Assembly: GCA_013138965.1 (NCBI GenBank)
Contig: WTBT01000022.1
Span: forward strand, 7,459 to 71,458
Length of the DNA stretch: 64,000 nucleotides
Source: Candidatus Aegiribacteria sp.
GTDB taxonomy: Bacteria > Fermentibacterota > Fermentibacteria > Fermentibacterales > JCC-6
Direction of reading: 5' to 3'
Shown: positions 311 through 46,091 of the stretch, piece after piece
How positions within the stretch are numbered: the first letter of the stretch is position 1
How the letters are laid out: the number at the start of each line of letters is the position of its first letter
Notes under the pieces: model-generated
The model's database searches: none
What the model was told of the DNA's origin: nothing
What the model saw: only the letters and a program-made list of their open reading frames with translations
Translations under genes and position numbers: made by a program

Positions 311-658
311 ATGTTATTCATAATTATACTGTTTACCGTTGTATTGAACCCGATTGTTTCAAGCTCTGAGGAATCAATTACGGGCACTATATGTGGCATC
401 GTAACGACTTACAGAGGGCATCCCCTGGAAGGCGCGACTGTGATGATAGCTGGCACTCCGATAGGTGCAATGACAGGTGTTAATGGTGAATTCATATTTA
501 CTGAAGTCGCTCAAGGTTCATATACTCTGATAGCTGGAATGGTTGGCTTGAGAGATGTCAGTATTGATGTGATTGTAACAGGTGATTCAAGGGTGGCTGT
601 GGAGTTTAAACTCAGGAGAGGATTCAGTGAAGAAATCCCAATCCTCATCGAGATATAA
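311..658 (+). CDS. small secreted protein with carboxypeptidase-regulatory-like (CarbopepD_reg) fold
   Basis: ORF 308..658. The ATG at 311 follows an AAGAGGTGA Shine-Dalgarno. N-terminal hydrophobic signal peptide, then 'GIVTT..G.PLEGATV' beta-sandwich pattern typical of CarboxypepD_reg domains. Confidence 0.5.
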   Translation: MLFIIILFTVVLNPIVSSSEESITGTICGIVTTYRGHPLEGATVMIAGTPIGAMTGVNGEFIFTEVAQGSYTLIAGMVGLRDVSIDVIVTGDSRVAVEFKLRRGFSEEIPILIEI

Positions 659-677
659 CTCGATATTCCCATTCATA

Positions 678-2309: not shown

Positions 2310-3815
2310 CTAGATCCTGGACATTGAGAAAGTTCCGAACTGTTCCATTTCAAAGCTAGTACGATCTAACTTGTAAATCTTGCCCTCAATGCTGTCATGT
2401 TTTAACCAATGATCAATGAGTGCCAATATCAGCATATCATTTGCACCATCAATGTATGTATCCTGACGAACACTTGAAAAATGGAGGAGAAGGTAACAAT
2501 CCCCGTCTCCAGGATAATCGAATACGGCATAGGTGTAGTGTCTTATGGAAGGGTAAATGTTAGACCATGGGAACCTCTGATTCAGGTGTATTCGAGGAAA
2601 AGTTCTGCCGTCATATTCCAGAATGGCAGTGCCAGTATCACTGAACGATAAAGTAACATCATCTATGAATGCATCAAGCGTAGTATCGCAGATCGCTGTA
2701 ATCTCGAAGTTTGGTGTATAAAGGTTTATGGTGCAGTCGGAATATGGTTCTGGTTCTGTATCATCAGATTCAACAAAATACAGGGTTCCGGAGATTGGTC
2801 CATCCTTGAGCACTTCCAACATAGCAGCAAGGAGAGGACGGTTCGATTCCCGGTCCATGTCGTTAATCCTGAGTAGAGTGCTTCTGCTTGAATAACTGGA
2901 ACCACCTGAAGCGAATGCTCTGAAGAAAAGACTGGAATCATCTAAATGTCTTCTTGTATCCTCGGAAACATATCTTTGCCGGCCTTTCAGGTGGAAATCC
3001 CTGCCAGCACTTACCATATATGCCTCATCCGGAAGGCCTATGGCCCAGTAATCAGGGTTCTCCATTTCGATTTTGAATACATAAAAAGGGACAGTGCCAT
3101 ATTCGTAGAAATCTTCAATGGACTGTATTGATCCAAAACAGGGATACTTTGGCCAGACATCAATATAGTAAACACCTTCAGTGTACTTCTGGACATCACC
3201 TGTGAACGTGCCTAATTGAACTCCCAGATAAAGATCTTCGCCAGTCGGTAACATGCTGAATTCCGTCATATAGTTATTACCGGAACAGATTGCACCGAAT
3301 GGATCCATATTATCCCATTCCGAGTAACTTGAACGAGTTCTCCGACCGTATTCCGAGGGGATCACCCTGATATCGATATTTTCCGAGGAAAAAGGAAAGT
3401 GAACAGTAATATATGATTCATGGTTATTAAACTCAGGTCCCAGTCCATTGGAAAGCAATTCCAGATCATCTACCGTAAGGATATTCGGAGAAGTGTTTCC
3501 AACCAAGATGTAGAAGCCATCTCTTGCCGGGCCAAAGCAAAGAAGTGCTCCAGTACTGTCAGCTATGAATAAAGCCTTTTGCCCCTGCTCAAGGAACGTA
3601 CTGAACCGAGTGGAGAAAGCCAGTTCATCACCAGTTTCGGATGACCCGGTCCAGGCTTCAGTGACTCTTAAGTAGACAGAATCAGCACTCTCAGTGATAA
3701 ACATACCCTCAACAACATGCGCATAATGATCATACTCTAGATAGTCAAATGCGCCAGTAGGAATGGTTATCATGGTTGTTCCAAAGAAACTCAGAATGAA
3801 TATCAGTATAAGCAT
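2310..3815 (-). CDS. hypothetical secreted protein (signal peptide, no recognised domain)
   Basis: 501-aa ORF with N-terminal hydrophobic leader. Convergent with the upstream gene (stops abut at 2309/2310). Confidence 0.5.
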   Translation of the reverse strand: MLILIFILSFFGTTMITIPTGAFDYLEYDHYAHVVEGMFITESADSVYLRVTEAWTGSSETGDELAFSTRFSTFLEQGQKALFIADSTGALLCFGPARDGFYILVGNTSPNILTVDDLELLSNGLGPEFNNHESYITVHFPFSSENIDIRVIPSEYGRRTRSSYSEWDNMDPFGAICSGNNYMTEFSMLPTGEDLYLGVQLGTFTGDVQKYTEGVYYIDVWPKYPCFGSIQSIEDFYEYGTVPFYVFKIEMENPDYWAIGLPDEAYMVSAGRDFHLKGRQRYVSEDTRRHLDDSSLFFRAFASGGSSYSSRSTLLRINDMDRESNRPLLAAMLEVLKDGPISGTLYFVESDDTEPEPYSDCTINLYTPNFEITAICDTTLDAFIDDVTLSFSDTGTAILEYDGRTFPRIHLNQRFPWSNIYPSIRHYTYAVFDYPGDGDCYLLLHFSSVRQDTYIDGANDMLILALIDHWLKHDSIEGKIYKLDRTSFEMEQFGTFSMSRI

Positions 3816-8254: not shown

Positions 8255-9904
8255 CTATTGCATCACCGAAACAGTACCATCATTATAATTCACGATATAT
8301 GCAGCCTTACCTGAGGGAAGTGAACAGATACTGGAAGGGTTGCCTCCAACATTTCTGGTTCTAATCACTTTATTGTCTGAAGTGCGGATCAGCGATACAG
8401 TATCATCTGTACTGTTTGCGACGAAAACACACTCTCCTGAAGGATGAGAACAGAGTCCCCAGGGGCCGTTGCCGACATTGACGGTTTTCACCAGCGAATT
8501 ATCGGAGGTACGGATAACTGCTACCACATCGTTGCTGTAATTGGATACGTATACGAAATCTCCTGATGGAAGCGTGCATATGCCTATGGGGTGTGTAAAC
8601 ATGTCAATGGTTTTTACTACTGAGTTGTCTGAGGTGCGGATGACGGAAACGTTGTTGGAATTCCAGTTAGTAACGTATACGTAATTCCCCGAAGGAAGGG
8701 AACAGATGCGATAGGGGGTAGTTCCGACATCGACGGTTGTCACAACGGAGTTGTCGGAAGTACGAATAACAGAAACATTATCATCATCTCGATTCGTAAC
8801 GTAGACATATTCACCCGAAGGAAGGGAACAGATGCCAACAGGCCTGTCTCCCGCAATGATGGTTGCGACGACGGAGTTGCTGGAAGTACGGATGACAGAA
8901 ACGTTATCGGAACCACAGTTAGTCACATACACATATTCACCGGATGGAAGAGAGCAGATGCCATAAGGGATATCTCCCACATTGACTGTAGCTGAGACTG
9001 AATTGTCTGATGTGCGGATAACGGATACGTTATCATCACCGCGGTTTGTCACATAGACGTACTCCCCGGAAGGGAGTGAACAGATACCCCATGGGTTAGA
9101 GCCGACATCCAGGGTTTCTGTAACATTATAAGGTATATATGTCATAGTACTCGAAGTGATCTCATTGCTCCAGCTGGAGATATCCTCGGTGTTCGCAGTA
9201 AGGAGCGCGTAGTAGTAAGTTGATGAAGATAAAACGGTGGTATCGGTATAGGCGGTATCCAATGACCAGGAAAGATCGCATATCAATTCTGCAAGTGTGG
9301 AATCATCTTCAATATTCGGCGTAAGAGATCTGTACAGTCTGTATGAATCGAAATTGGGATTGGGACACTTGGTCCAGGATAGATCAACATAGTACCACGA
9401 AACATCTACTTCGGAGAGCACAGAGGGGGCAGGGGCTTCGATTTCAGGTGTAGTAATCGACACCTCATTGCTCCATACACCATTACCGCCGGAATCAGTG
9501 TTCTTCAGAACGTAGAAATATTCCGTATCCCATGTAATATCAGTGTCTACGTATATCGACGTATTAACCTGAGTGAATTCACCAAGGATCTTTGCGGAGG
9601 AAGGATCGGAGGAGATGTCGTTCGTCTCTGATCTGTAAAGAACATAGCTGTGGAACCCCTGATCGGAACAGATAGTCCAGGAAGCTGTTATTATGCAGCT
9701 GCTCTTCGTGCCTGTTGAATTCCGCCCTAGAGCTGATGCGGAAAGATCCGAAGCAGCGTCTGGCCCAGCTTTGCCGGTATGGCCGGTAAAGCTGACTGAC
9801 AGGGTGGAGGGAGAGAGATCGGATCCGGAAGGACCGGTACTGTCCCCGCATGCAAGTAGAAGAGCAAGTGTGATAGCGATGGTAACATTCATTAAATTAT
9901 TCAT
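8255..9904 (-). CDS. lipoprotein with FN3-like domains and seven YVTN-family beta-propeller repeats
   Basis: Lipobox LALLLAC-GDS. Seven ~41-aa repeats of 'YVYVTN..DNVSVIRTSDNSVV.TV.VG..P.GICSLPSGE' match the 40-residue YVTN beta-propeller repeat. FN3-like 'W..V...W' regions lie upstream. Confidence 0.7.
   Translation of the reverse strand: MNNLMNVTIAITLALLLACGDSTGPSGSDLSPSTLSVSFTGHTGKAGPDAASDLSASALGRNSTGTKSSCIITASWTICSDQGFHSYVLYRSETNDISSDPSSAKILGEFTQVNTSIYVDTDITWDTEYFYVLKNTDSGGNGVWSNEVSITTPEIEAPAPSVLSEVDVSWYYVDLSWTKCPNPNFDSYRLYRSLTPNIEDDSTLAELICDLSWSLDTAYTDTTVLSSSTYYYALLTANTEDISSWSNEITSSTMTYIPYNVTETLDVGSNPWGICSLPSGEYVYVTNRGDDNVSVIRTSDNSVSATVNVGDIPYGICSLPSGEYVYVTNCGSDNVSVIRTSSNSVVATIIAGDRPVGICSLPSGEYVYVTNRDDDNVSVIRTSDNSVVTTVDVGTTPYRICSLPSGNYVYVTNWNSNNVSVIRTSDNSVVKTIDMFTHPIGICTLPSGDFVYVSNYSNDVVAVIRTSDNSLVKTVNVGNGPWGLCSHPSGECVFVANSTDDTVSLIRTSDNKVIRTRNVGGNPSSICSLPSGKAAYIVNYNDGTVSVMQ
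8290..9130 (-). repeat. intragenic ~123-bp tandem DNA repeats (x7) encoding the YVTN repeats
   Basis: Repeated 'gtatacgtaattccccgaaggaagggaacagatgc...' units are visible directly in the sequence. Confidence 0.6.
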
Positions 9905-10043
9905 ATTTATTGTTTCTATGCTTGAGGAATGTTTTTAACTGGAGTACCTGAATAATTGCAGTGAGCCTTGAGCGTGTCAACCAATGAAGTTGCTTGTATT
10001 AAGGTGTTCCTTCGGCTGGAGTTGTTTCCAGATAATAATCCCC

Positions 10044-11063
10044 TCAGGAAGAAATAGATGATGCATCATCAGGTATCATCTTTTCAGGCAGTGAAATTCT
10101 GAACCTGCATACAGGATCTCCAGCCAGAACACTCTGAAGTACCTCTACATGGGTGGATTCACCGAATACGACATCGAACATCAGCTTCTGAAAACCTCCG
10201 CTGCAATAACACCAATCCATGGGTATGTCCGGACCGTTCATTATTATGGCTTCTCTGGCGAGGGGACAGTGGCATGCATAATATCTTTTCATGAGGCTGT
10301 CCGTCTCCTTCAACCAATCCTTGGGAGAATACGGGATCTTGGTGACGTAAAGGTATTTTCCATCGCGGACTGCAGACAGAATTTCCTGATTACCTTTGAC
10401 CAGCTCAATGACTTCCGGTGTGATTTCCTGCTCGAACCATGCCTTTCCATCGTCGAGGTGCTGCTGCAGAATCCTGATCCTTTCCACATGGACTCTCTTG
10501 AGGAAACTATCGATAGAATCGGATTCCTCAAACCATTGCAGATGCTTCTGGAAGCTGTCATGGGGTATTCCATGATGGTTGTCAGCCAGAACCTCATGGC
10601 AGGTGTCCGAGCCAAGTTCCATAAGCCTGTTCGCGAGCAGACAGGTGTTTCCGGGATATGTATCGGGAGGTGAACCCAGGGGGGGAGCCTCAAGACCATC
10701 AAACACCCTGTCTCTGCAGTCAGTATCTTTCTTTGATACAAGTTTCTCCGATATGGATTCGAATACTTCCCTTCCGCTGATGGTAGAAATTATATAGATG
10801 TACACTTCATTCTGTCCCGTCACGTAGAAATATCTGGCAAGGTCCCGGAACCGCTGCATTGTGTTCTTTTCGTCTGCTATAAGAGCGGTGAAATAATCTT
10901 TAACGGAATGAATTTGAACTGAATCGATATCTCTGTCTGTCTTAGTGAGGTATTCCTCGAAATCCTTCACAGTTTCAAGGGCGGAATTCAGTGCGTTATC
11001 ATCTGCATTCCTTGATCGGAGGAATTTGGTGTATTCAGATATTCTCATCTTAACCGCTTTCAT
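10044..11063 (-). CDS. hypothetical cytoplasmic protein with Cys/His cluster (CHCP...WCYCSGGF...C)
   Basis: 339-aa ORF, no signal peptide. The Cys-rich C-terminal region suggests metal binding. No family recognised. Confidence 0.45.
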   Translation of the reverse strand: MKAVKMRISEYTKFLRSRNADDNALNSALETVKDFEEYLTKTDRDIDSVQIHSVKDYFTALIADEKNTMQRFRDLARYFYVTGQNEVYIYIISTISGREVFESISEKLVSKKDTDCRDRVFDGLEAPPLGSPPDTYPGNTCLLANRLMELGSDTCHEVLADNHHGIPHDSFQKHLQWFEESDSIDSFLKRVHVERIRILQQHLDDGKAWFEQEITPEVIELVKGNQEILSAVRDGKYLYVTKIPYSPKDWLKETDSLMKRYYACHCPLAREAIIMNGPDIPMDWCYCSGGFQKLMFDVVFGESTHVEVLQSVLAGDPVCRFRISLPEKMIPDDASSISS

Positions 11064-11364
11064 ACTGATCAGTGAGCATTAAGAACCAGGTACTTTACTC
11101 GTCTAAAACAGGGGATACGAAGATCACCCGCAAATGTGATTATGTAAAGAACATGTGTTCACTGACAACCTGGTATTCTCTGTGCAGTGGTATTCCGCTG
11201 AATCTGAATTGAAGCGGTTTATTTGAATAGTTATACAATCCTTGACATGAATCTGCGTATCTCTATATTACAAACCGTGATTCAGTGTCTTTGAGAATTG
11301 GTTAGGTTCCACTCGACTCATTTCTGAGAATTGTGTTCCCCCTATTATCAGGACATTCTGATAT

Positions 11365-11478
11365 CCATATGCGACCATTCCGGTTGCAGCAGCCGGTTGT
11401 AATACCGGGTAGTAAGCTTCGGATAATCCGAAGCACCGGACCTGAGTGTCCGGGGATGGAGGGTATGAACCCTCAGGA
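11365..11478 (+). promoter_or_regulatory. structured 5' leader upstream of the RRM RNA-binding protein gene
   Basis: Consecutive perfect hairpins: CCGG-ttgcagcag-CCGG, CCGG-ttgtaata-CCGG, GCTTCGG-ataat-CCGAAGC, CCGGAC-ctgagt-GTCCGG. A GGAGGG motif lies immediately before the ATG at 11479. Confidence 0.35.
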
Positions 11479-11742
11479 ATGGAGTTATTCTTGAATAACA
11501 AACTGTTTGTTGGCGGACTTTCGTGGGGAACCACGGATAAAGAACTTATGGAAACCTTCTCACCGTACGGTACCGTTACGGAAGCAAAGGTCATCAAGGA
11601 ACGTGATTCCGGAAGGTCTCGCGGTTTCGGTTTCGTTACTTTTGATACCGAAGCAGAAGCAACCGCAGCCGCGGAAGCTCTGAACGATACAGAACTTGAT
11701 GGACGTAGCCTTAGAGTAGATTTCGCTCACGATAAGCGTTAA
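11479..11742 (+). CDS. RRM-type RNA-binding protein (glycine-poor Rbp-like)
   Basis: RNP-2 motif LFVGGL and RNP-1 motif RGFGFVTF. The ATG at 11479 lies within ORF 11446..11742. Confidence 0.85.
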   Translation: MELFLNNKLFVGGLSWGTTDKELMETFSPYGTVTEAKVIKERDSGRSRGFGFVTFDTEAEATAAAEALNDTELDGRSLRVDFAHDKR

Positions 11743-11765
11743 CGCCGATTATCTCTGTAAAGAGA

Positions 11766-11797
11766 GAAGGGCAGCTCATTGAGCTGCCCTTTTTTGT
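11766..11797 (+). terminator. rho-independent terminator
   Basis: GAAGGGCAGCTC-att-GAGCTGCCCTT followed by TTTTTGTG. Confidence 0.7.
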
Positions 11798-11814
11798 GTA
11801 CTGATTCCAGTTCG

Positions 11815-12263
11815 TTAAGGAAGCAGAACCATACTTTCTGACAGGATTATGCTTCCGGTATCGATCTGAACGAAGTATATACCGGACGGTTCACCGGAAA
11901 TATCCATGTCGATACTGTGCCTGCCAGCAGTGAACTGAGCGGTTTCGGATTCGGATACAATTCTTCCGTCAGCGGAGTATATCCGTAACTGCACATCGCT
12001 GCCTGCCTCAAGAAGAACATTCACAGTGAAGTATCCATATGTCGGACTTCCAGATATGCTCATTTCACAATCGGAGTTAAGCTCGGAGCCTGCTTCATGT
12101 TCGATCCCTGTATAACCGCCGTATCCAAGCCTTCGAAATCACTTACAATGAGATCTAAGTGTCCGTCTGCGTTCCAGTCATTCACCCAGAGTCTTGTCCC
12201 GTAAAGATCAATGTCACTTCCGTTGCTTTGAAGATATTCATAACCGCTGAATACGGAACCCTA
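11815..12263 (-). pseudogene. 3' remnant of a T9SS cargo gene (FG-GAP-like repeat fragment plus intact Por_Secre_tail CTD), frameshifted and 5'-truncated
   Basis: ORF 11815..12063 encodes only a T9SS CTD (..YGYFTVNV..LRIYSADGRIV..GIYFVQIDTGS). Upstream, a different frame encodes '..LWVNDWNADGHLDLIVSDFEG..' bounded by stop codons (TAG near 12264), with a -1 offset relative to the CTD frame. Confidence 0.5.
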
Positions 12264-12389
12264 CATTCGCTATTACTGCGCCTTATCCCGGAGAAAAACT
12301 GATTATGGACATTCGTTCAGAATGTTATTATCTCTGTAAATGTGGCTGTTACAGTGTACATATGGAGTTTGAGAAGGGGGAGGCTGAAA

Positions 12390-14135
12390 ATGGGCTATTA
12401 CGCCAGCGCTTTTCTATTTGCGTTTCTGATTCTGCTTGCTTCTGCCGGAAATGCAGAGGGAAAATACACATGTGAAGATGATCTTATCGAAGTGATGTTC
12501 ACAGAGGATTCCGCCGTAAGGCTCCGATCCGGAACGCTTGTAGATCTTTCTGATAGTGGAGCTCTGGATGGTCTTGAAGAAGTGCTTGAGCTTACGGATG
12601 GTTACCAGTGGGAGAGGATATCAACGATCTCAGAGGAAGCAGTTGATGAAATGGAGTTGAGGGGGGAACAGCTAACAGGCAAAGATATCTACAATCTCAA
12701 CAATATTTACAGGCTCAGATTCCAGGGTGATATAAATGTATGGGAGTTCGCGGTGATACTGCAGGGGCTTCCCGGGATCATCAGCGCAATACCGGTGCCG
12801 CTTCCACAGCTCCCTCCCCAGCCACCGAATTATCAGGGGATGCAGGGTTACCTGAAAGCTGCTTCGTTCACTCCCACCGGAATCGATGCCATTTACGCCT
12901 GGACACAGTCTGGAGGTGACGGCACCGGAGTAACGGTCTGCGACCTGGAATACAGCTGGAACTACAACCATGCAGATCTGACCAAAGCTCCGGGTTCACA
13001 GATAAACAGCTTCGTGCAGGACCCTTTCAGTAATAATAATCATGGCACAGCAGTTATCGGCGAGATGGTATCCGACTTTAACGGCTGGGGCACAACAGGA
13101 ATCTGTCATGCCGCAGGCATTAAAACCTGCGGTACGTATTATGGTAATCCCACACCGGGATGGAACGTGCCCGGGGCGCTCATCGTGGCCATATCAAACC
13201 TGTCCGCAGGAGATGTGATACTGCTGGAACAGCAGTGGGAGTACGTTTCCGGATCAAATGATTATGTGCCGATTGAATGGTGGGGCGCTACTTCTCCCAA
13301 CGCGCAGCAGTATAATGCCGTATACGCCGCCATTCAGAATGCCGTATCCAACGGTATACATGTTGTGGAAGCCGGAGGGAATGCTGTTAACGGCGGCGGC
13401 GTTGATATGGATCCAATGCCATGGTTTGGTGACAGCGGAGCGATAATTGTCGGTGCCGGAGGCGCATACACGAGCGGTGATCTGGTTAGGCTTTATTATT
13501 CAAATTACGGTTCAAGATTTACTTCCCATGGCTGGGGAGAGGATGTAGTGACAACAGGATACGGAACCCTCTACAGCAGTATGGGCGTGAACTACTACTA
13601 CGCCTCGGGGTTTTCGGGCACGTCCAGCGCCTCCCCGATGGTGGCCGGCGCCGCGGCCTGCTGTGTCGGCTACTGGGTGGCCAACGGCAACCCGGTGAAT
13701 ACACTTACACCGGCAATGCTGAGATCAACTCTTTCAAATACAGGAACGCTTCAGATATTTCCTCCTTCCGGGAGCATTGGGACAAGACCGAATCTAATGG
13801 GAGCTTTCGCGTACCTCTATTCTGTTGGTATAGGCACAACGATGGAGCCTTCCGGTTCAGTCGCCATGAGCGTTTTCCCGAATCCGGCATCGGAGTATGT
13901 AACCATCGAGCTCTTCCGCTCTTCGGAGATGACATCTCTTCATGGTCTTGCGATTTACGACATCTCCGGAAGACAGGTGGCAAACTTCGGTAAATCGAGT
14001 GTCATGGCAGGCGAAGCAGTAGTCTGGGACTGCAGGAACATGAGCGGCAGCAGAGTACCAGGGGGACTCTATACAGCAGCAGGAGTTTACGATTCCGGTT
14101 CGGTAACGGTGCCATTCATCATCCTGAGCAGGTAG
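12390..14135 (+). CDS. subtilisin-like serine protease (peptidase S8) with C-terminal T9SS sorting domain
   Basis: Catalytic motifs: Asp (GTGVTVCDLE), His (NNHGTAVIG), Ser (GTSSASPMVAG). CTD '..VFPNPASEYVTIEL..IYDISGRQV..GLYTAAGVYDSGS'. An AAGGGGGAGG Shine-Dalgarno precedes the ATG at 12390. Confidence 0.85.
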   Translation: MGYYASAFLFAFLILLASAGNAEGKYTCEDDLIEVMFTEDSAVRLRSGTLVDLSDSGALDGLEEVLELTDGYQWERISTISEEAVDEMELRGEQLTGKDIYNLNNIYRLRFQGDINVWEFAVILQGLPGIISAIPVPLPQLPPQPPNYQGMQGYLKAASFTPTGIDAIYAWTQSGGDGTGVTVCDLEYSWNYNHADLTKAPGSQINSFVQDPFSNNNHGTAVIGEMVSDFNGWGTTGICHAAGIKTCGTYYGNPTPGWNVPGALIVAISNLSAGDVILLEQQWEYVSGSNDYVPIEWWGATSPNAQQYNAVYAAIQNAVSNGIHVVEAGGNAVNGGGVDMDPMPWFGDSGAIIVGAGGAYTSGDLVRLYYSNYGSRFTSHGWGEDVVTTGYGTLYSSMGVNYYYASGFSGTSSASPMVAGAAACCVGYWVANGNPVNTLTPAMLRSTLSNTGTLQIFPPSGSIGTRPNLMGAFAYLYSVGIGTTMEPSGSVAMSVFPNPASEYVTIELFRSSEMTSLHGLAIYDISGRQVANFGKSSVMAGEAVVWDCRNMSGSRVPGGLYTAAGVYDSGSVTVPFIILSR

Positions 14136-30653: not shown

Positions 30654-31769
30654 ATTCGTGTCCTTTTCGATCTCAGCATAGTTCCCCATGCGCTCGGTGG
30701 AGTAGCCCGGTACCTTCTATCAGTTGCGGGAGCCATTTCAGAAGTCGCCGGGCAGTTCGGAATCGAATTTATCCCCCTGGACGTTCCTGCGGCACATCCC
30801 GGTGTTCCCGGACCTGAAATGGTCGATCTTGTCCTTGAAACTCCTTTTTATCTTAAAATCCCTTTTTTCAGAAGAATTCCCATTCGAAAACGATGGGAAG
30901 AGAGATCACGGGCCGAAAGGCTCCGCGCATATGCCGGAGGAAGATCGGTATTTCACCACAGTGGCGTGCAGACTGAGTATCCCGCCGGAAGCGTATCCGT
31001 AGTAACTGTATACGATCTATCAGCTCTTGAAAATCCCCAATGGCATACGAAGGAAACGGTTTTATTTGCCGAAAGGGAAGCCCGGCTTATAGAGGGTGGT
31101 TCCTCGGTTATGGCAATATCGGAATGGACCAGGCAGCGGGTTATTGATTATTTTGACCTGCCGCAGGAGAGGGTATTCTGCGCTGGAGGAGCTGCGGACA
31201 GTATTTTTTCACCGGGGTCGCCCTCCTCAGGAGTAATGGAAAAGCTGGACCTTGAACCCGGAAGATATTTCCTTCATGTGGGCAACTTCGTTCCAAGAAA
31301 GAACATTCCATTTCTCCTGGATGTGTACGGAATATCCAGAGATAAGGGCGTTAAAATCCCTCTTGTTTTGGTTGGAGCGGGTGGATGGGGGGATGTGGCG
31401 GTTGATGAGGGACCGGGAGTACGGGTACTGAGGAACCTTTCCAACAGAACTGTAGTTGAGTTGTACCGCGGAGCCAGAGCGCTTCTTTGCCCCAGCAGTT
31501 TCGAGGGACTCGGCCTTCCCGTGCTTGAGGCATTCGCATGCGGCACTCCGGTTATTTCAAGCAGCGCCGCCGCTCTTTCGGATACGGTAGGGAATGACGG
31601 GGTTCAACTTGATCCCGGCGATCATGAAGGCTGGGTCAGGGAAATTACAGCGCTTGAGGAACCGGAAAGGGTAGATGATCTTCGGAGAATGTCCTCCTCA
31701 GCCGTGAGGAAGGACTGGCAGGATATAGCGAGAGGCATCTGCGGATTCTACAGGAGGATATCGGAATAA
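30654..31769 (+). CDS. glycosyltransferase family 4 (GT4-A); conserved N-terminus upstream of the first ATG
   Basis: 'GLGLPVLEAFACGTPVISSSAAALSDTVGNDGVQLDP' is a GT4 motif. The frame is open from 30649 and encodes canonical 'IRVLFDLSIVPHALGGVARYLL', but the first ATG is at 30819. A candidate ATT at 30654 follows an AGGAG at 30647-30651. Confidence 0.7.
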   Translation: MRVLFDLSIVPHALGGVARYLLSVAGAISEVAGQFGIEFIPLDVPAAHPGVPGPEMVDLVLETPFYLKIPFFRRIPIRKRWEERSRAERLRAYAGGRSVFHHSGVQTEYPAGSVSVVTVYDLSALENPQWHTKETVLFAEREARLIEGGSSVMAISEWTRQRVIDYFDLPQERVFCAGGAADSIFSPGSPSSGVMEKLDLEPGRYFLHVGNFVPRKNIPFLLDVYGISRDKGVKIPLVLVGAGGWGDVAVDEGPGVRVLRNLSNRTVVELYRGARALLCPSSFEGLGLPVLEAFACGTPVISSSAAALSDTVGNDGVQLDPGDHEGWVREITALEEPERVDDLRRMSSSAVRKDWQDIARGICGFYRRISE

Positions 31770-31847
31770 TGAAGATACTGCATCCACAGATCCTGGCCCT
31801 ATCATGGAGGCGCGGAACGTTACGTTCTGGAACATGCACTGTGGCGG
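31731..31847 (+). repeat. direct repeat copy 1 (GT4-A 3' end / GT4-B 5' start junction)
   Basis: agaggcatctgcggattctacaggaggatatcggaataatgaagatactgcatc...ctggaacatgc is near-identical to 33490-33601 apart from a 5-bp indel (tggtc). Confidence 0.75.
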
Positions 31848-31879
31848 TTGGGAAACCTGAAACAGGATTCTGTTGAATC
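31769..31879 (+). pseudogene. frameshifted 5' remnant of the downstream GT4-B gene
   Basis: ATG AAG ATA CTG CAT... copies the start of the gene at 33528 but lacks 'tggtc', shifts frame and terminates after 36 codons. Confidence 0.55.
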
Positions 31880-31965
31880 GATCATCCTTATCAGTGGATT
31901 GAACCTTGATGGTGGCATTGATCGCAGGAAAGTCTATGAGTATTGCTATTCCTGGTGAGATTATA

Positions 31966-32430
31966 TCATATTCTTCTGCGTAGTTTGTGTTTAAATATAT
32001 TCATAATTCTTTCTGTTTCAGTTTTCATTCTCGATACTCCAAGAAGTCCACCTGAGAAACCTGTCATGCCGCTTGAAAATACCAGCGTAGTATTCTGTGC
32101 ATTTGAGTAGATATTAATATTGAATTTATAGCGTTTCGCAAAACCACCCAACAGGAACCGACATAGAGAACTACCTGTTGCGTAGACACCATTGACTGGT
32201 GTACCACTATCGAGTTGATACCCTTCTTCAAAGAAGATATTAGCAACATTTCGAGCAGTTTCGTCAATAGATACACTGATTATTGTAACTTTAAAACCTG
32301 ACCCCAGATTTACGTAGGAGATAAACTTATTCGATGTCTGATTATGCTTTTCCGATAAAGCTTTTCCACAGAATGTGCAAAATGCCGTAGTATTCTCTGG
32401 AAGCTTTTGACCACATCTGGAACAATACAT
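31966..32430 (-). CDS. zinc-ribbon domain protein (N-terminal CxxC...CxxC) with uncharacterised soluble C-terminal domain
   Basis: 'MYCSRCGQKLPENTTAFCTFCGKAL'. Opposite strand to all neighbours, AT-rich context. ORF 31966..32451 with ATG at 32430. Confidence 0.5.
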   Translation of the reverse strand: MYCSRCGQKLPENTTAFCTFCGKALSEKHNQTSNKFISYVNLGSGFKVTIISVSIDETARNVANIFFEEGYQLDSGTPVNGVYATGSSLCRFLLGGFAKRYKFNINIYSNAQNTTLVFSSGMTGFSGGLLGVSRMKTETERIMNIFKHKLRRRI

Positions 32431-32566
32431 TGCAACCTCCTGGAAAACCATACTGTACCATATCGGTTATTAATCTCATGTGTATTCAGTAGATCTGTAT
32501 ATTTTATATACTTCTATACTCAAATATTACGCTATTTGAATAGTGGCATCCATCCACAACTTTTAG

Positions 32567-32959
32567 TTATAACTCGGCCATGAGTGGCAGGAAAAATAAG
32601 AAGAAAAAGACCAAATCAATCACACCCAGTACAATAGCTGCTGTTCCCATTCCTTCTCCGGTATAAAATTCCGGTCGTTCTTTTACTTTCTTTTTCGCGC
32701 CGTTACCCAATATGATAGCGATTATCCCAAAAATGATACCAAAGAAAAATATGCCGATCAAGCCGCATACAAGTCCTGCTACTGCTCCCGGGGCGTTCTT
32801 TCTGATAATTTGAACTCCTTGTGCATAAGGTATGGATGAAGCCGTATTATATACCTGAGTTCCTCCAGATGTATCTTTTATACTGTCTCCACAGTACGGA
32901 CAGAAGGCTTCAACTTTATTTTCATCAAGCTGTTTTCCGCATTTTGAACAGAACATCAT
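32567..32959 (-). CDS. zinc-ribbon plus two-TM (DUF4190-like) membrane protein
   Basis: 'MFCSKCGKQLDENKVEAFCPYCGDSI', then 'APGAVAGLVCGLIGIFFFGIIFGIIAIILGNGAKKK' and a second TM helix. Paralogous N-terminus to the adjacent gene. Confidence 0.55.
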   Translation of the reverse strand: MMFCSKCGKQLDENKVEAFCPYCGDSIKDTSGGTQVYNTASSIPYAQGVQIIRKNAPGAVAGLVCGLIGIFFFGIIFGIIAIILGNGAKKKVKERPEFYTGEGMGTAAIVLGVIDLVFFFLFFLPLMAEL

Positions 32960-33412
32960 TACCTCCTATTTGTGAATGCAGCCGATAATTGAAAATTGAT
33001 TTCCAGAATATTGGATTTTCGAGCAAGATAACTGCTCAGAAAAACCTCAACATCTTTTTTCCAGCCGTAATTTATTTAAAGTAATAATACCGATGCCAGC
33101 ACTTCCCTGTCAATGATATGAAGAGCTGATTAACGATCAGAATAGTATTCAAGTATTGAAGCATCTGAAGAAAGCTAACCCGTATTCCCCGCACAACTGC
33201 AAAGCTTAAATAATAGACTCCGGTTATCCGGGAATTGAAGCCTGAGTATCTTTGAAATATTGATTTATGGAGATTATGATTACATCAACAACAATAATAC
33301 ATAATCTGGTTCTTGTGACAAACAATGAGAAACATTTCCGAAGAGAAGATGGTTCGAAGAAGGAACGAAGCCCGGCTGAGATGTGCTACCTGGTTGCATG
33401 ATTTGAAGAAAG

Positions 33413-33527
33413 AACTATGGTTGAGTTGTACCGTGGTGACAGGGCGCTTCTCTGCCCCGGCAGGGAGGAAGGAGTAGCGTAATATAGAAAGAGGCATCTG
33501 CGGATTCTACAGGAGGATATCGGAATA
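33413..33527 (+). pseudogene. decayed 3' remnant of GT4-A (internal deletion) ahead of intact GT4-B
   Basis: aactatggttgagttgtaccgtggtgacagggcgcttctctgccccggcag matches 31447-31498. It then jumps to agaggcatctgcggattctacaggaggatatcggaataATG. Confidence 0.5.
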
Positions 33528-33601
33528 ATGAAGATACTGCATCTGGTCCACAGATCCTGGCCCTATCATGGAGGCGCGGAACGTTACGTTCTGGAACATG
33601 C
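33490..33601 (+). repeat. direct repeat copy 2
   Basis: See copy 1 at 31731-31847. Confidence 0.75.
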
Positions 33602-34772
33602 CATCGCAGGGAATAGATGGGGGCACGAGTCGGTCATCTGCACAACCGACGCATGGGATATGTCATTGTTCGTTTCCAGGTCAGGAACCCGCATATTGAA
33701 GCGCGATGATCTGATTGACGGTGTAAGAATAAAACGTTTCCCCGTTTTCCACCCTCCGTTTCAGAATTTATTCCGAGCTGTACTTAGACGGTTAAGTGAA
33801 TGCGGCCCCGACAGGTACTATTATCCCAATCCTTTCATTCCCTCGCTGCACCGCTGGCTTTCAGCGGAGAGGGGATTCGACCTGGTTCATGCCAACGCGA
33901 TGCCATTCATGCTTTACGAAGGATGGCGCTATAGCAGAGATCATGGAAAAGGCCTTGTTTCAGTACCACACGCAAACGTTGGCGAGAAATACAGAAGAGT
34001 AAAGGCGCTGCGCTACTTCAGCGGCTGTCAGAAGAAGATTCTGCGGAACAGCACTTTTGTCGTAGCGCAGAGCAGATTTGAGAAAGAGCTTTACTCGGGT
34101 ATGGGAATCCCGGAGGAAAGGGTTCACATCTCGGGCAGCGGGATAGATCCTGCCGAATTCGCCGGTAGCAGCCGGGAAAGAGGATTGGAACGGCTTGGAG
34201 TGACTGGACCGGTTATTCTATGTCTGACAGCGCACTCACTGGATAGAGGAACGGCGAATATCATTCAGGCGTGCAGGATCCTTCTGAAAAAGGAACGTGA
34301 TTTTACCCTGGTCCTTGCCGGTCCCGTTCTTCCGGATGTGGAAGAATACATAAATTCCGAAAAGAAACTTGCGGAGGAGTTCGGTGACAGGCTGGTATTA
34401 ACGGGATATGTAAGCAGGGAAGAGAGAATTGATTTGCTTTCGGCAGCGGATATCGTCCTTCTTCCTTCAAGGCTGGACTGCTTTGGAATCGTGGTACTGG
34501 AAGCCTGGATATCCGGAAAACCGGTTATCGGGTGCTGGTCAGGAGCAATGCCTGATATCATCAGCGACGGCAACAACGGATTCCTCGTGTCATGGGGTGA
34601 TACCACTTCGCTTATGAACAGGATAGAGATACTGCTGGACAACGAAGAGCTTGGACGAGCCATGGGCTCAAGGGGCCGGAAGGATGTGCTTGAGAGATGG
34701 ACCTGGGAGAAGGTTACTGACAGGTTCTACCGGCGTCTTTCACAATGCTGCCCGGAATCAAGCAGCCTATGA
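33528..34772 (+). CDS. glycosyltransferase family 4 (GT4-B)
   Basis: 'MKILHLVHRSWPYHGGAERYVLEHA' N-terminus and 'LLPSRLDCFGIVVLEAWISGKPVIGCWSGAMPDIISDGNNGFLV' C-domain. Confidence 0.85.
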   Translation: MKILHLVHRSWPYHGGAERYVLEHAIAGNRWGHESVICTTDAWDMSLFVSRSGTRILKRDDLIDGVRIKRFPVFHPPFQNLFRAVLRRLSECGPDRYYYPNPFIPSLHRWLSAERGFDLVHANAMPFMLYEGWRYSRDHGKGLVSVPHANVGEKYRRVKALRYFSGCQKKILRNSTFVVAQSRFEKELYSGMGIPEERVHISGSGIDPAEFAGSSRERGLERLGVTGPVILCLTAHSLDRGTANIIQACRILLKKERDFTLVLAGPVLPDVEEYINSEKKLAEEFGDRLVLTGYVSREERIDLLSAADIVLLPSRLDCFGIVVLEAWISGKPVIGCWSGAMPDIISDGNNGFLVSWGDTTSLMNRIEILLDNEELGRAMGSRGRKDVLERWTWEKVTDRFYRRLSQCCPESSSL

Positions 34773-41891: not shown

Positions 41892-42027
41892 GGCCCCCTT
41901 CGCGGCTGTTGTTTTGCGGAATCCCATGAAATATAATTGAGCGCTGTTCAGGCAATATTTTGAATTCATCTTTATGATGCACATTCCTTAATCCGAGTAT
42001 GAACAGGTAAAGGAGATCTCTCTTACA

Positions 42028-43953
42028 GTGACAAGAAAAATGGAGGAGATGACAGCCTCCGATTATGAAGCAATCGGACTTCGCAGCGGGCTGGAGATAC
42101 ATCAGCAGATAGATACTGAAAAGAAACTCTTCTGCCGCTGCCCGGTACTCCCGTACTCTGACGTTTACGATGCTCAGATACTCCGCCATATGAGGCCGAC
42201 CCTTTCAGAACTTGGTGAATACGACGGTACCGCTCTTATGGAGTTCAAAACAAGAAAGAATATTACATATCAGATAAACAGTGATACTATATGTACTTAC
42301 GAAATGGATGATAACCCTCCTTTTGAATTGAACCCACAGGCTCTGGATATTGCCCTTGAGATAACGATGCTGCTTAATTGCAAGCTTGTGAGTGAGGCTC
42401 ACATATTAAGGAAGCAGTACCTTGACGGATCAATACCTGCCGGCTTTCAGAGAACCACACTTCTGGGAGTGGACGGCTGGGTTCCCTTTGGGAACAGGCG
42501 CATAAACATCATCCAGCTTGGACTGGAGGAGGATGCCTGCCGGGAAGTGAGCGATTCTGGGCACGAACGTGTCTACCTGACGGACAGGCTTGGAATACCT
42601 CTGATAGAGACGGTAACAGCTCCCGATATGACTACACCGCATGAAGTGGCTCAGGTAGCCGTTATCCTGAGCAATCTGGCTCGTGCTTCCGGCAAAGTCC
42701 GCAGAGGGATCGGCGCCGCGAGACAGGACGTGAACGTCTCTGTAACGGGCGGGTGCCGTGTGGAGATAAAAGGTGTTTCACGGATTCCCGCGATACCGCT
42801 GCTTGTCCATAACGAAGCCTTCAGACAGGTGTCTCTGCTTGAAATAAAGCGGGAGCTGTCCAGGAGGGGAATAACCGATTCAACCTTCAGTTCAGAGTAC
42901 TTCGATGTAACACGGGAAATCGCGGGAACTTCCTCCAGATACGCTGTAACAGCGTTGAAGAGGGGGTTTGAACTGCGGGCAGTTGTACTGAGGGGATATC
43001 GGGGATTGCTCTCCACGGTTACCCAGCCCGGTCATACTTTTGCCCGCGAGATATCCGACAGAGTCCGTGTGGTCGCATGTCTGGACGACCTTCCAAATAT
43101 CGTTCACGATGGAGAAGAAGGTGACAGTTTCTCTGATAACGAGTGGGAGATTATAAGAAAGAAAACCGGCGCAGATTCGGAAGATGCCATTGTTGTTGTC
43201 TGGGGATCCGCTGAAGATATTGAAACTGCGGTCAGTGAAATAACCCTGCGGGCAAAAGATGCCATTGATGGAGTCTGCAGTGAAACAAGGCAGTCGCTTC
43301 CCGATGGTACGAACGGATTCGAGAGAATACTGCCCGGGCCGAACAGAATGTATCCTGACACTGACCTCCCGCCCATCGTCATTACAGAGGAAATGATAGA
43401 ACGTATCGGATCTGCGCTCCCTGAAAGACCCTGGGAACGCGCGGAGCGGTACGTTGCCGCAGGTGTGCCTAATGAAACCGCCCGCCAGATGAGCATTTCT
43501 GATATGAGATTCCTGTACGATTCCGCCGCTGCGAAGTGTAACTATTCTCCACGGGTTCTCATGCACTTTTTCTTGAGCACCCTGCAGCATCTTAAGAAGA
43601 GTGGAAGGATTCCCGGATTGACAGAAGAGAGTTTGATAGAAGTACTCGAAAAAGCCGGAAAGCAGAACCTTTCAATCGAAGCTGCAGCTTTCATTATTGA
43701 GAGAGTATGCGGATACGATCGAACCGGGATTGATATCGTGATAAAGAACCTGAAAATTCCCGGCAGGAAAGAACTGGAAGATGCTGCCGGCAGCCTGATG
43801 GAGGCGGCGGGTAACTTCGATTCCCTTCTGCTGGAGCAATATCTTACCGGGAAGGTAAGGGGCAGGTTCAATGGCATAGCCGGTGGCAAAGATGTAATAG
43901 AAGTGGTTCGCAACGTAATCCTTTCACGAGCTGGTAATTCTGGCAGGAGGTGA
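42028..43953 (+). CDS. gatE: archaeal-type Glu-tRNA(Gln) amidotransferase subunit E (GatE)
   Basis: 'GLEIHQQIDTEKKLFCRCP...MRPTLSELGEYDGTAL' and overall length of about 640 aa match GatE, not bacterial GatB. Confidence 0.8.
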   Translation: MTRKMEEMTASDYEAIGLRSGLEIHQQIDTEKKLFCRCPVLPYSDVYDAQILRHMRPTLSELGEYDGTALMEFKTRKNITYQINSDTICTYEMDDNPPFELNPQALDIALEITMLLNCKLVSEAHILRKQYLDGSIPAGFQRTTLLGVDGWVPFGNRRINIIQLGLEEDACREVSDSGHERVYLTDRLGIPLIETVTAPDMTTPHEVAQVAVILSNLARASGKVRRGIGAARQDVNVSVTGGCRVEIKGVSRIPAIPLLVHNEAFRQVSLLEIKRELSRRGITDSTFSSEYFDVTREIAGTSSRYAVTALKRGFELRAVVLRGYRGLLSTVTQPGHTFAREISDRVRVVACLDDLPNIVHDGEEGDSFSDNEWEIIRKKTGADSEDAIVVVWGSAEDIETAVSEITLRAKDAIDGVCSETRQSLPDGTNGFERILPGPNRMYPDTDLPPIVITEEMIERIGSALPERPWERAERYVAAGVPNETARQMSISDMRFLYDSAAAKCNYSPRVLMHFFLSTLQHLKKSGRIPGLTEESLIEVLEKAGKQNLSIEAAAFIIERVCGYDRTGIDIVIKNLKIPGRKELEDAAGSLMEAAGNFDSLLLEQYLTGKVRGRFNGIAGGKDVIEVVRNVILSRAGNSGRR

Positions 43954-43959
43954 TCCAAA

Positions 43960-45345
43960 CTGTCTTCCGATCTTTACAAAGGCTATAGGGGCAAAAGCCT
44001 GGAATGCCTGAAGAAATTCTGTGTCGGCGTATGGTCAGACGTTGATATCAAATCAACCAGAGGGGGCTTCAAGGGTGTCATTCTCCCCAGGTCGGAAACT
44101 GCAGATGATACTCACATAGTATTGAAGATCCACAACGGTTACAATGTAGGCCTGGGCGTAGATACCATAGAGTCCATTACAGAATTGGGAAGAAATGAAG
44201 CCCATTACAAGATCCCTGAGAAGGAATTCCCATTCGATCCTTCCAAGCCGAATGTAAAACTCTTTGGAACGGGGGGCACCATAGCTTCAAGGCTGGATTA
44301 CAGGACCGGTGCGGTAATCCCCGCCTTTTCTCCCGGAGAGCTTTACGGTTCGGTACCTGAACTGGCAGACATATGCAACCTTAAAACGGAGAAGCTCTAT
44401 GGAGTCTTCAGTGAGAATATGGGGCCTGATCAGTGGAAGGGAACGGCAGAAGCGATAGGGGAAGAAATAGCAAACGGTGTTGACGGTATCGTCATTGGGC
44501 ATGGAACCGATACTATGCACCATACAGCCGCTGTTCTTTCATTCATGGTTCAGGATTCACCGGTTCCTATCGTAATGGTCGGTTCCCAGAGATCAAGCGA
44601 CCGGCCTTCCAGCGATGCGGCAATAAACCTCATGAATGCCACTTATGCCGCTTCCCATAGCGATATTGCAGAAGTTATGGTCTGTATGTTCGGGCCCACA
44701 AGTGATCAGTACGGACTTCTTCACAGGGGAACAAGGGTCAGAAAGATGCACTCCTCCTACAGATCCACATTCAGGACTATCGGAGATATACCGCTGGCAA
44801 TGGTTGAAAATGGAAAAATCACACATCTGAAAAATGACTATAAAAAGAGAAGAAAAGACCGAAAGGTGAATATCAATACCGCTTTCGATCCAAGGGTATC
44901 AATCGTGTATTACTACCCTGACATGAAACCCGATATCATAGAATCGCTTATCGATAACGGGTACAAGGGAATAGTTATCGCAGGTACGGGATTAGGACAT
45001 GTTAACAAGCCTCTCTATCCTGTTCTTAAGAAGGCCTGTGAACAGGGTATACACATATACATGACAGTTCAGACACTTTGGGGATACGTACAGATGTTCG
45101 TGTACGACACCGGGCGTGATATCATGGAACTTGGCGTAATCCCGGCATCGAACATGCTTCCTGAAGTAGCATACGTGAAACTGTGCTGGGCACTTGGACA
45201 GAGTCATGACAGCGAAGAAGTCAAGAAGATCATGCTTACCCCGATAGCCGGCGAGATCACGGAGAGGGAGCCACACAACGGGTATCTTATACTCCAGGGC
45301 GGTATTCCCGAAGTTGAAGAGTTCATAAGCAGGTACAAAAGATAG
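43960..45345 (+). CDS. gatD: archaeal-type Glu-tRNA(Gln) amidotransferase subunit D (GatD, asparaginase-like)
   Basis: Asparaginase-fold 'LFGTGGTIAS', 'GIVIGHGTDTM'. The GatD-specific N-domain '..GVILP..DDTHIVLKIHNGYNVGLGVDTIESI' is encoded upstream of the TTG at 44122, in frame from a CTG at 43960 right after AGGAGGTGATCC. Confidence 0.75.
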   Translation: MSSDLYKGYRGKSLECLKKFCVGVWSDVDIKSTRGGFKGVILPRSETADDTHIVLKIHNGYNVGLGVDTIESITELGRNEAHYKIPEKEFPFDPSKPNVKLFGTGGTIASRLDYRTGAVIPAFSPGELYGSVPELADICNLKTEKLYGVFSENMGPDQWKGTAEAIGEEIANGVDGIVIGHGTDTMHHTAAVLSFMVQDSPVPIVMVGSQRSSDRPSSDAAINLMNATYAASHSDIAEVMVCMFGPTSDQYGLLHRGTRVRKMHSSYRSTFRTIGDIPLAMVENGKITHLKNDYKKRRKDRKVNINTAFDPRVSIVYYYPDMKPDIIESLIDNGYKGIVIAGTGLGHVNKPLYPVLKKACEQGIHIYMTVQTLWGYVQMFVYDTGRDIMELGVIPASNMLPEVAYVKLCWALGQSHDSEEVKKIMLTPIAGEITEREPHNGYLILQGGIPEVEEFISRYKR

Positions 45346-45548
45346 GTAAGAAGATCGGAACGGAGGATGCTGCGCTTAATCTGCGGTTGACCCGACCCTT
45401 CTGGAACAATATTATTGTTTTGTGATAAATATTTTTGTTATTGCTTCGCTGTTCAGGATATGCCCAAATCGCATATGCGGAACAGTATTTTTTGTACATG
45501 TTCATCCTTGCAATTGAAAAATTGATACCTACCCGAAGGGAGTTCCAA

Positions 45549-46091
45549 ATGAACATTGAAATCAGTGGAAGACACTTTGACCTGACAGATGCTCTTAAAC
45601 AGCATGTTGAACATAAATTAAGAACCATAGACAGGTTCTATGATGGTATAAAGGATGTCCACGTGATACTGGAAGTAACCTCGGGAACCAATCACGTTCA
45701 TATACAGATGAGAGGAAATCACATCAAACTTGATTCCAAGTCGAAATCCCATGATATCTATTCGGCTTTCGACGACGCATTTGACTCACTTGAGAGCCAG
45801 GTCAGGAAATTCAAGGACAAGATGCATAATCATCCTCACAGGAATAATTCAAACGGCACCTCTCTGAGTTACTACCATGCTGCTGAGGAATCGGAGTTTC
45901 AGGACGGTATTCTGATTGATGACGCAAAAAGAATACCGAGGTTGAAAACTGAAAACGCTATAATGAATTACGAGATTGAGCAGAAAGGTAATTATGTGTT
46001 CCAGAACACGGAAACCGGTAAACTCAGTGTTGTATATTCAACATCCAGCGGCACAACACAGGTTGTAGAACTGGTAAGAGAACAGAAATAA
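45549..46091 (+). CDS. hpf: ribosome hibernation promoting factor (long HPF)
   Basis: 'MNIEISGRHFDLTDALKQHVEHKL' S30AE/HPF N-domain plus C-terminal dimerisation domain. Confidence 0.85.
   Translation: MNIEISGRHFDLTDALKQHVEHKLRTIDRFYDGIKDVHVILEVTSGTNHVHIQMRGNHIKLDSKSKSHDIYSAFDDAFDSLESQVRKFKDKMHNHPHRNNSNGTSLSYYHAAEESEFQDGILIDDAKRIPRLKTENAIMNYEIEQKGNYVFQNTETGKLSVVYSTSSGTTQVVELVREQK

Follow-up and report, generated by a model that had tools for sequence, protein, structure and literature searches.

A gatE-gatD operon in Candidatus Aegiribacteria and the bacterial branch of the GatDE amidotransferases

We analyzed a stretch of 64,000 nt from Candidatus Aegiribacteria sp. (GCA_013138965.1, contig WTBT01000022.1, positions 7,459-71,458 of the forward strand), called the window in the following, whose numbering is used throughout. 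It carries the adjacent genes gatE and gatD, which probably form an operon for a functional GatD2-GatE2 tRNA-dependent amidotransferase that derives from one ancient transfer common to bacterial GatDE. Between 2008 and 2022 GatDE has been described as confined to archaea and as having evolved together with the archaeal tRNA-Gln (PMC2330236, PMC2811023, PMC8007984, PMC8762117, PMC9499178) and it has been termed an archaeal signature protein (PMC2330236, PMC8762117). We scanned GTDB for GatE using one genome per species, which gave 100 loci (cited below by their L numbers), and analyzed the best 80. The window is bacterial and so are these 80 loci. As the archaea-only statement refers to taxonomic distribution and is not a structural criterion, it does not stand in the way of assigning the window proteins to GatDE.

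Results

The gatE gene (42028-43953, forward strand) encodes a protein of 641 aa, which was assigned by the NCBIfam GatE equivalogs, by Pfam GatB_N and by alignment to 2D6F. It reaches 518 bits with NF003107 (cut-off 456) and 471 bits with TIGR00134 (cut-off 320) over profile positions 2-624 of 630. GatB is a paralogue of GatE, and the GatB models gave 64-143 bits against cut-offs of 315-680, covering only residues ~100-280 (best model 143 bits, cut-off 338). The top PDB matches were the GatE chains of 1ZQ1 and 2D6F with 341-358 bits as compared to at most 91 bits for GatB chains, and residues 12-633 of the window protein align to residues 2-617 of 2D6F GatE. Its domains are a catalytic cradle, which is well conserved among bacterial GatEs, an AspRS-like insertion and a putative helical domain and C-terminal tail. 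The Mg ligands H25, E167 and E194 are invariant in all 76 bacterial GatE homologues counted and correspond to H15, E157 and E184 of Methanothermobacter thermautotrophicus GatE, which have been described as Mg2+ ligands and as essential by mutagenesis (PMC2330236). The Pfam GatB_N positions 4-277 are spread over residues 21-458, implying an insertion of ~160 aa. Through this AspRS-like (GAD) insertion, a divergent domain with 28% identity to the archaeal proteins, the 2D6F alignment is unbroken; the Pfam GAD model itself found no match in the window GatE. The equivalog and 2D6F alignments also reach the C-terminus, where GRFNGIAGGK aligns with GRLRGRADGK of M. thermautotrophicus and the tail identity is 15-21%.

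The start of gatE is ambiguous, GTG 42028 leading to the 641-aa form and ATG 42040 fitting a public gene call of 637 aa (P0001), and an AAAGGAG Shine-Dalgarno-like motif is found before it at 42009-42015. No sigma54 promoter that could tie gatE to the neighbouring NtrC-type regulator was detected upstream of it in 41892-42027 (19 window-wide matches with 25.9 expected), and the sigma70 and terminator scans around gatE-gatD gave no excess over the shuffled expectation.

The product of gatD (43960-45345, forward strand; 461 aa from a CTG start) combines GatD_N with two asparaginase domains (Pfam Asparaginase and Asparaginase_C) and scored 500 bits with NF003217 (cut-off 310) and 498 bits with TIGR02153 (cut-off 324), while also lying above the cut-off of the asparaginase subfamily model TIGR00519. 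Its best PDB matches were the GatD chains of 2D6F and 1ZQ1 with 408 and 401 bits, asparaginases giving 146 bits or less, and residues 8-437 align to residues 2-428 of 2D6F GatD. The catalytic residues T104, T183, D184 and K262 align with the archaeal ones and are invariant in 66 of 66 bacterial homologues. The initial annotation had named the two open reading frames GatE and GatD, and with all four equivalog cut-offs passed and the GatE and GatD chains as top PDB matches we could confirm this; the best matches are not GatB and a type I asparaginase, for which the scores were 143 bits (cut-off 338) and at most 146 bits. It had also claimed the GatD-specific N-domain, and here the start codon matters. 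PF18195 (GatD_N) was found at residues 27-73 with 46.6 bits (cut-off 25.7) only with the CTG 43960 start, and it is not whole in the open reading frame beginning at TTG 44122. Because of this position a start at TTG 44122 would bisect GatD_N.

Several observations indicate that gatD probably begins at CTG 43960 and not at TTG 44122. The mechanical open reading frame from TTG 44122 has 407 aa, whereas the homologues have ~460 aa and align only from their residue ~54. The 168 nt from the gatE stop to TTG 44122 are in frame, contain no ATG, GTG or TTG, and encode most of the GatD-specific N-domain. Within them 43960-44121 (forward strand) forms an in-frame, conserved coding stretch for the N-terminal 54 codons of gatD, which encodes the conserved sequence LSSDLYKGYRGKSLECLKKF..., and the conserved GatD N-terminus SKLSSDLYKGYRGKSLECLKKF... 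is likewise encoded ahead of TTG 44122. A comparison of the 54 codons with five relatives gave 15-23 substitutions at third positions and 3-7 at positions 1 and 2, that is 16-23 synonymous versus 2-6 non-synonymous codons per pair. The gatE/gatD junction reads AGGAGG-TGA-TCC-AAA-CTG. There an extended, perfect Shine-Dalgarno sequence of 11 nt, AGGAGGTGATC (43945-43955, forward strand; read in the sequence), spans the gatE stop TGA (43951-43953), and CTG 43960 follows 4 nt after its end. The GGAGGTGATC motif with an NTG 4-5 nt further on is kept in Fermentibacterota and Krumholzibacteriota, even with a different gatE stop or frame, and the layout SD-N4/5-CTG-TCN-TCN-GAT (SD, Shine-Dalgarno) recurs in Krumholzibacteriota as well as in the five species closest to the window and five more from Fermentibacterota. 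In other species the codon equivalent to CTG 43960 is GTG, TTG or ATG. The exact 461-aa protein is present as GenBank NOQ21857.1, "GatD [Candidatus Aegiribacteria sp.]", and the 407-aa TTG form is present in Logan, where, as in ENA and NCBI, cluster mates of 395-411 aa look like similar truncations. Gene callers that allow ATG, GTG and TTG only thus shorten GatD by 54 residues in this clade and halve GatD_N. From the arrangement at the junction gatD appears to be translationally coupled to gatE, as the Shine-Dalgarno sequence over the gatE stop would direct initiation at CTG 43960.

Two other explanations of the junction were considered. A GatE-GatD fusion made by stop-codon readthrough, for which the window has both genes in the same frame and TGA between them, was rejected because L002, L005, L009, L010 and L012 keep the Shine-Dalgarno sequence and CTG although the stop or the frame of their gatE is not the same. 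A +1 frameshift from the GTG inside GGAGGTGA is unnecessary, and this GTG abuts the Shine-Dalgarno sequence; the NTG 8-9 nt downstream of it varies like a start codon (CTG, GTG, TTG, ATG).

The best 80 GTDB loci come from ~20 bacterial lineages. In the protein searches all 8000 scored candidates of each search passed the E-value threshold, and every taxon-labelled sequence among the best 120 inspected in each was bacterial, so that bacterial GatDE sequences would number in the thousands at least. The locus titles name Fermentibacterota, Krumholzibacteriota, Latescibacterota, Planctomycetota, Elusimicrobiota, Myxococcota, Delongbacteria, UBP1, Aminicenantes/Acidobacteriota, Gemmatimonadota, Chrysiogenetes, Zixibacteria, Ignavibacteria, Calditrichota, Chloroflexia, Thermotogae, Bacteriovoracaceae and Desulfuromonas, and a later search added GN15 and Marinimicrobia. 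Isolates or complete genomes with GatDE are found in Clostridia, for example Oceanirhabdus sp. W0125-5 and Clostridiales oral taxon 876. The distribution is patchy, with major well-studied phyla absent among the matches listed. In every bacterial locus with both genes the order is gatE-gatD on the same strand, and in most cases the two genes overlap by 4 nt or are a short gap apart. Among bacterial GatDs the identity is 61-98% (median 73%), and towards the archaeal GatDs of known structure it is 43-50%; the corresponding values for GatE are 37-96% and 28-39%. Identities of 61-98% across phyla indicate strong purifying selection on GatD.

Some members of the family differ in their architecture. 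P0122 (943 aa, from a 12.8-kb Logan contig) is a single-chain GatE-GatD fusion on the bacterial side of the GatD tree, in which the GatE part is reduced to the catalytic core (residues 17-474, profile positions 5-457 of 630), lacks the helical domain and the tail, and is followed by a complete GatD (residues 510-920). In the high-GC loci L062 (8867-11890), L037, L034 and L052 the stop-to-stop gatE reading frames are well over 640 aa long, for example 1007 aa in L062, a Chloroflexia metagenome-assembled genome (MAG); they may be over-extensions by the ORF finder or real N-terminal fusions. L064 is a tblastn match with no intact gatE reading frame.

To take a closer look at the neighbours of bacterial gatED we compared the genes around it. 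Outside Fermentibacterota the commonest neighbour is a type I glnA (TIGR00653, 502 bits, cut-off 429), which lies beside gatED in 15 loci (L017-L020, L022, L024-L028, L030-L032, L043, L048) and in 14 of them immediately precedes gatE in the same orientation. These loci belong to Krumholzibacteriota/Latescibacterota, Planctomycetota, UBP1, Gemmatimonadota and unclassified MAGs, and the arrangement suggests a glnA-gatE-gatD unit in which amide-donor synthesis is joined to tRNA amidation. Three tRNA genes are present in the best 80 loci, one for tRNA-Glu and two for tRNA-Gln, the latter both upstream of gatE. The tRNA-Gln gene of L079, a Bacteriovoracaceae MAG, has a UUG anticodon (9815-9889) and lies ~110 nt from gatE, and that of L042, a Delongbacteria MAG, has a CUG anticodon (8756-8827) and lies ~1.2 kb from gatE. 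The glnA and tRNA-Gln neighbours point to a function with glutamine, not asparagine.

The evolutionary origin was addressed with two neighbour-joining trees. The GatD tree (191 sequences, being 50%-identity representatives from 1.84 billion proteins, with an asparaginase outgroup) places the 66 locus-derived bacterial sequences in one clade with a bootstrap value of 89, which rises to 94 when four divergent sequences are included, one of them (P0121) in a bacterial context. A Sigynarchaeota protein belongs to the group that branches next to this clade (bootstrap 64). The GatE tree (97 sequences, unrooted, with partner GatE proteins taken from the archaeal loci) shows a bacterial clade and a clade of Loki-/Prometh-, Hermod-, Hod- and Sigynarchaeota, each with a bootstrap value of 100, and both together are split from the other archaea (Ranarchaeia, Nitrososphaerota, Desulfurococcaceae-type, Methanothermobacter, Pyrococcus), again with 100. 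The gene order agrees with this picture, as gatE-gatD is found in four of four Loki/Sigyn-type Asgard loci (L082, L089, L090 and L091 from Sigyn-, Loki- and Promethearchaeota) and gatD-gatE in the other four adjacent archaeal pairs sampled (L083, L084, L085 and L088, with the Asgard class Ranarchaeia, Nitrososphaerota and Desulfurococcaceae-type among them); the archaeal locus L086 has gatD without an adjacent gatE. The Asgard contigs with the E-D order carry TFIIB, an Arf-type GTPase, Pelota, ELP3 or ribosomal protein L2, and close relatives of the Asgard GatE are present in many independently binned Asgard MAGs on contigs with archaeal markers. Among the archaea sampled the nearest sequences have ~50% identity for GatD and 39% for GatE, none being closer.

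The surroundings of gatED in the window are bacterial, as the initial annotation had stated. We found MutS1 (947 bits), bacterial TopA (671 bits), an MsbA-like ATP-binding cassette transporter, HPF, HprK, HPr, PtsI, HslV, HslU, XerC, an extracytoplasmic function sigma factor and a protein with a type IX secretion system sorting domain. The two genes indeed lie between a two-component system, whose NtrC-type response regulator was recognized by the motifs GESGTGKE and GAYTGA in its translation, and hpf-hprK-ptsH-ptsI. This position is part of a block of 12 genes (membrane protein, histidine kinase, NtrC-type regulator, gatE, gatD, hpf, hprK, ptsH, ptsI, nucleotidyltransferase and two glycosyltransferases) whose arrangement is shared by at least nine species-level genomes of Fermentibacterota from different studies, with parts of it on shorter contigs. 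Its genes have diverged about as far as GatE, for example in L016 with 62% identity for GatE, 56% for the histidine kinase, 69% for the response regulator and 70% for PtsI. The codon-usage distances of gatE and gatD are 0.065 and 0.083 (window mean 0.109 ± 0.031), so that most genes of the window lie further from its average, and neither their GC content nor their GC content at third codon positions (GC3) nor their 4-mer profile stands out from the window. Both proteins have their closest relatives in bacteria (56-94% identity; archaeal proteins 28-50%), and close ones carry the label Candidatus Aegiribacteria or Fermentibacteria, a lineage that belongs to the FCB group. Thus gatED is a native, long-resident operon of Fermentibacterota.

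No tRNA genes and no Rfam matches were found in the window. A further gene of the GatB or GatE type was absent from the window and from 81 loci (1.39 Mb), a search of loci and not of whole genomes. The paper describing Candidatus Aegiribacteria does not mention genes for GatCAB, GlnRS, AsnRS or GluRS.

Further observations concern the neighbouring DNA. In L014, an Aegiribacteria species and one of the at least nine with the 12-gene block, gatE-gatD is inverted in place within the conserved block (9989-13297). The HPF reading frame of the window (45435-46091, 218 aa, TTG start) has probably been called too long on its 5' side, as the match to the HPF/YfiA profile sets in at residue 39, and a good sigma70-like promoter match, TTGACC-17-TATTAT, is located near it at 45387-45415. 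Positions 1-3000 and 31000-34000 have a GC content of 0.40-0.44 (~0.49 elsewhere), and the latter region, inside a run of glycosyltransferase genes, could be a variable segment of a polysaccharide locus.

Discussion

The window pair and the archaeal GatDE of M. thermautotrophicus (2D6F) and Pyrococcus abyssi (1ZQ1) have the same two subunits with the same domain order and length. GatE aligns end to end with chain C of 2D6F, and GatD, including its N-domain, with chain A; the Mg ligands of GatE, the Thr nucleophile of GatD and its Thr-Lys-Asp triad are identical, and in the divergent tail GIAGGK of the window protein aligns with the archaeal GRADGK as a G-x-A-x-G-K motif (PMC2811023). The differences are the host, here a bacterium, the identity of only 35-37% for GatE and 46-48% for GatD, and the highly divergent helical and tail domains of the window protein. 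The GatDE of Loki-/Prometh-, Hermod-, Hod- and Sigynarchaeota, whose GatEs are the sister group of the bacterial ones in the GatE tree, also have gatE before gatD with a short gap or overlap but are only ~35% (GatE) and ~47% (GatD) identical to the bacterial proteins, and their GatEs give Pfam matches for a GAD-like insertion and the GatB_Yqey tail, whereas the bacterial GatEs are without those matches. With bacterial GatCAB the pair has in common the chemistry, the fold family of the catalytic cradle (Pfam GatB_N) and, presumably, the same U1-A72 tRNA-Gln substrate. In contrast, the glutaminase of GatCAB is the amidase GatA, which works along with GatC, while GatDE uses the asparaginase-type GatD and needs no GatC. 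The window GatE also differs from GatB in having the AspRS-like insertion and in lacking the 3_10 turn and the Lys-rich tail motif (PMC2811023). Type I L-asparaginase has both asparaginase domains and all catalytic residues in common with the GatD core, but the window GatD has the additional GatD_N, and bacterial gatD always adjoins gatE.

The enzymatic activity and the use of U1-A72 tRNA-Gln are predicted from homology with the solved archaeal enzymes. A non-discriminating GluRS would charge tRNA-Gln with glutamate, and GatE would bind the resulting Glu-tRNA-Gln and phosphorylate its gamma-carboxyl group with ATP and Mg2+ (H25, E167, E194). GatD would hydrolyse glutamine or asparagine by its asparaginase-type Thr nucleophile and Thr-Lys-Asp triad, and the ammonia would pass through an intersubunit tunnel to GatE, yielding Gln-tRNA-Gln.

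Some of our data weigh against an operon for a functional GatDE of single ancient origin. Pfam gave no match for the GatB_Yqey tail in the window GatE. Its helical domain and tail, whose archaeal counterparts approach the D-loop in 2D6F, have only 15-23% identity to those of other bacterial GatEs. Both tRNA-Gln genes next to bacterial gatE (L079 and L042) have a U1-A72 first pair and G73, whereas the identity elements of tRNA-Gln for archaeal GatDE are the A1-U72 pair and the D-loop (PMC2330236, PMC9499178). Furthermore, both trees include few non-Asgard archaea, and the deep nodes of the GatD tree with the asparaginase root are unresolved (bootstrap 0-3). Because of the U1-A72 pair in the neighbouring tRNA-Gln genes, tRNA recognition by bacterial GatDE would have to differ from the archaeal mode or be relaxed. 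Bacterial GatB reads U1-A72 with a 3_10 turn (PMC2811023). At the position of this turn the window GatE has a short basic loop of the GatE type, GKVRRGIG, as compared to TRVKRGLG or KKVKRGLG in archaea, and it keeps the Arg of the archaeal KVKRG where most bacterial GatEs have Thr (KVRTG).

This mismatch with the archaeal A1-U72 determinant (PMC2330236) also fits a different view, in which bacterial GatDE is not a housekeeping enzyme, coexists with GatCAB and/or GlnRS and has another or additional role, for example Asp-tRNA-Asn amidation, a dual specificity like that of bacterial GatCAB, a reserve function under nitrogen or stress conditions, or a tRNA-dependent supply of amino acids for a non-ribosomal product. 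The strong divergence of the D-loop-reading GatE tail, the tail-less P0122 fusion and the location beside the regulatory and stress-related genes hpf-hprK-ptsH-ptsI in Fermentibacterota go in the same direction. We nevertheless regard such a role as rather unlikely, since the operon is associated with glnA and tRNA-Gln, the residues of the canonical chemistry are invariant, the GatD conservation across phyla is what one would expect of an essential translation factor and no biosynthetic gene cluster lies beside gatE-gatD in the window. If bacterial GatDE is the amidotransferase proposed here, it might even have replaced GatCAB as the sole route to Gln-tRNA-Gln in Fermentibacterota and several other phyla, alongside AsnRS for asparagine and following one Asgard-to-bacteria transfer. 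The enzyme would then have been re-tuned from A1-U72 to U1-A72 via the divergent loop and tail of GatE. We put this forward as a tentative possibility.

As for the origin of the locus, an archaeal fragment wrongly joined to or binned with bacterial sequence has to be considered, as the literature calls GatDE exclusively archaeal (PMC8762117, PMC2811023, PMC8007984) and the window comes from a metagenome-type assembly whose proteins match MAG records. A recent acquisition from an archaeon by this genome alone could also be imagined for a family otherwise characteristic of archaea. Both are rejected because of the conserved 12-gene synteny, the matching divergence of the neighbours and the typical codon usage. 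The block with its bacterial flanks was recovered in separate assemblies of at least nine MAG species of Fermentibacterota, the composition in terms of GC, GC3, codon usage and 4-mers is that of the window, and the closest relatives are bacterial, which leaves a chimera with a practically negligible probability. The phylum-wide position, the absence of any compositional anomaly, the single clade of bacterial sequences and the lack of archaeal sequences above ~50% (GatD) or 39% (GatE) identity make a recent acquisition by this lineage hardly credible as well. The initial annotation had described the pair as embedded in the bacterial neighbourhood by horizontal acquisition and had named an assembly chimera as the finding that would overturn it. 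An ultimate origin by interdomain transfer involving archaea is supported, but as a single ancient event: the synteny, the typical codon usage and a monophyletic clade over ~20 lineages do not agree with a recent foreign insert. It had proposed to seek a donor clade by phylogeny, and the nearest archaeal relatives found are the Loki/Hermod/Hod/Sigyn-type Asgard archaea. One may also ask whether GatDE was present in the last common ancestor, a scenario of Sheppard and Söll (2008) in the form summarised in PMC9499178, so that the bacterial clade would be an ancestral bacterial lineage inherited vertically. This clade is deep and monophyletic, includes many phyla and is about equidistant (43-50% for GatD) from the archaeal groups sampled. 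However, in the GatE tree bacteria group with only a part of the Asgard archaea, and Ranarchaeia, TACK and Euryarchaeota stay outside (bootstrap 100), the derived E-D order is common to bacteria and that part of the Asgard archaea, bacteria fall inside the archaeal diversity unless the root is on that branch, and the bacterial spread is patchy, so we consider a vertical relic very unlikely. The simplest reading is one ancient interdomain transfer of a gatE-gatD cassette between an ancestor of the Loki/Hermod/Hod/Sigyn-type Asgard archaea and bacteria, after which the cassette was inherited vertically and spread further among bacteria. Since archaea have GatDE generally and bacteria only in patches, we favour the direction from archaea to bacteria.

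Conclusion

In summary we have described a gatE-gatD operon of Fermentibacterota that belongs to a bacterial clade of GatDE. In GenBank these bacterial proteins already bear the names GatD and GatE, and a full-text search, with many subscription papers outside its reach, found no published description of bacterial GatDE; the novelty is the recognition of the pattern and not the annotation of this locus. The textbook distribution of GatDE is thereby revised, and the family offers a case, dated by topology, of the interdomain transfer of a core translation component involving an Asgard lineage. It also opens to tests in bacteria the question why a dedicated Glu-amidotransferase exists and how A1-U72 and U1-A72 are read (PMC2330236, PMC2811023). 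If GatDE has indeed replaced GatCAB in these phyla, it would no longer be an archaeal signature protein, and the bacterial enzymes would represent a natural experiment in swapping tRNA identity rules across domains.

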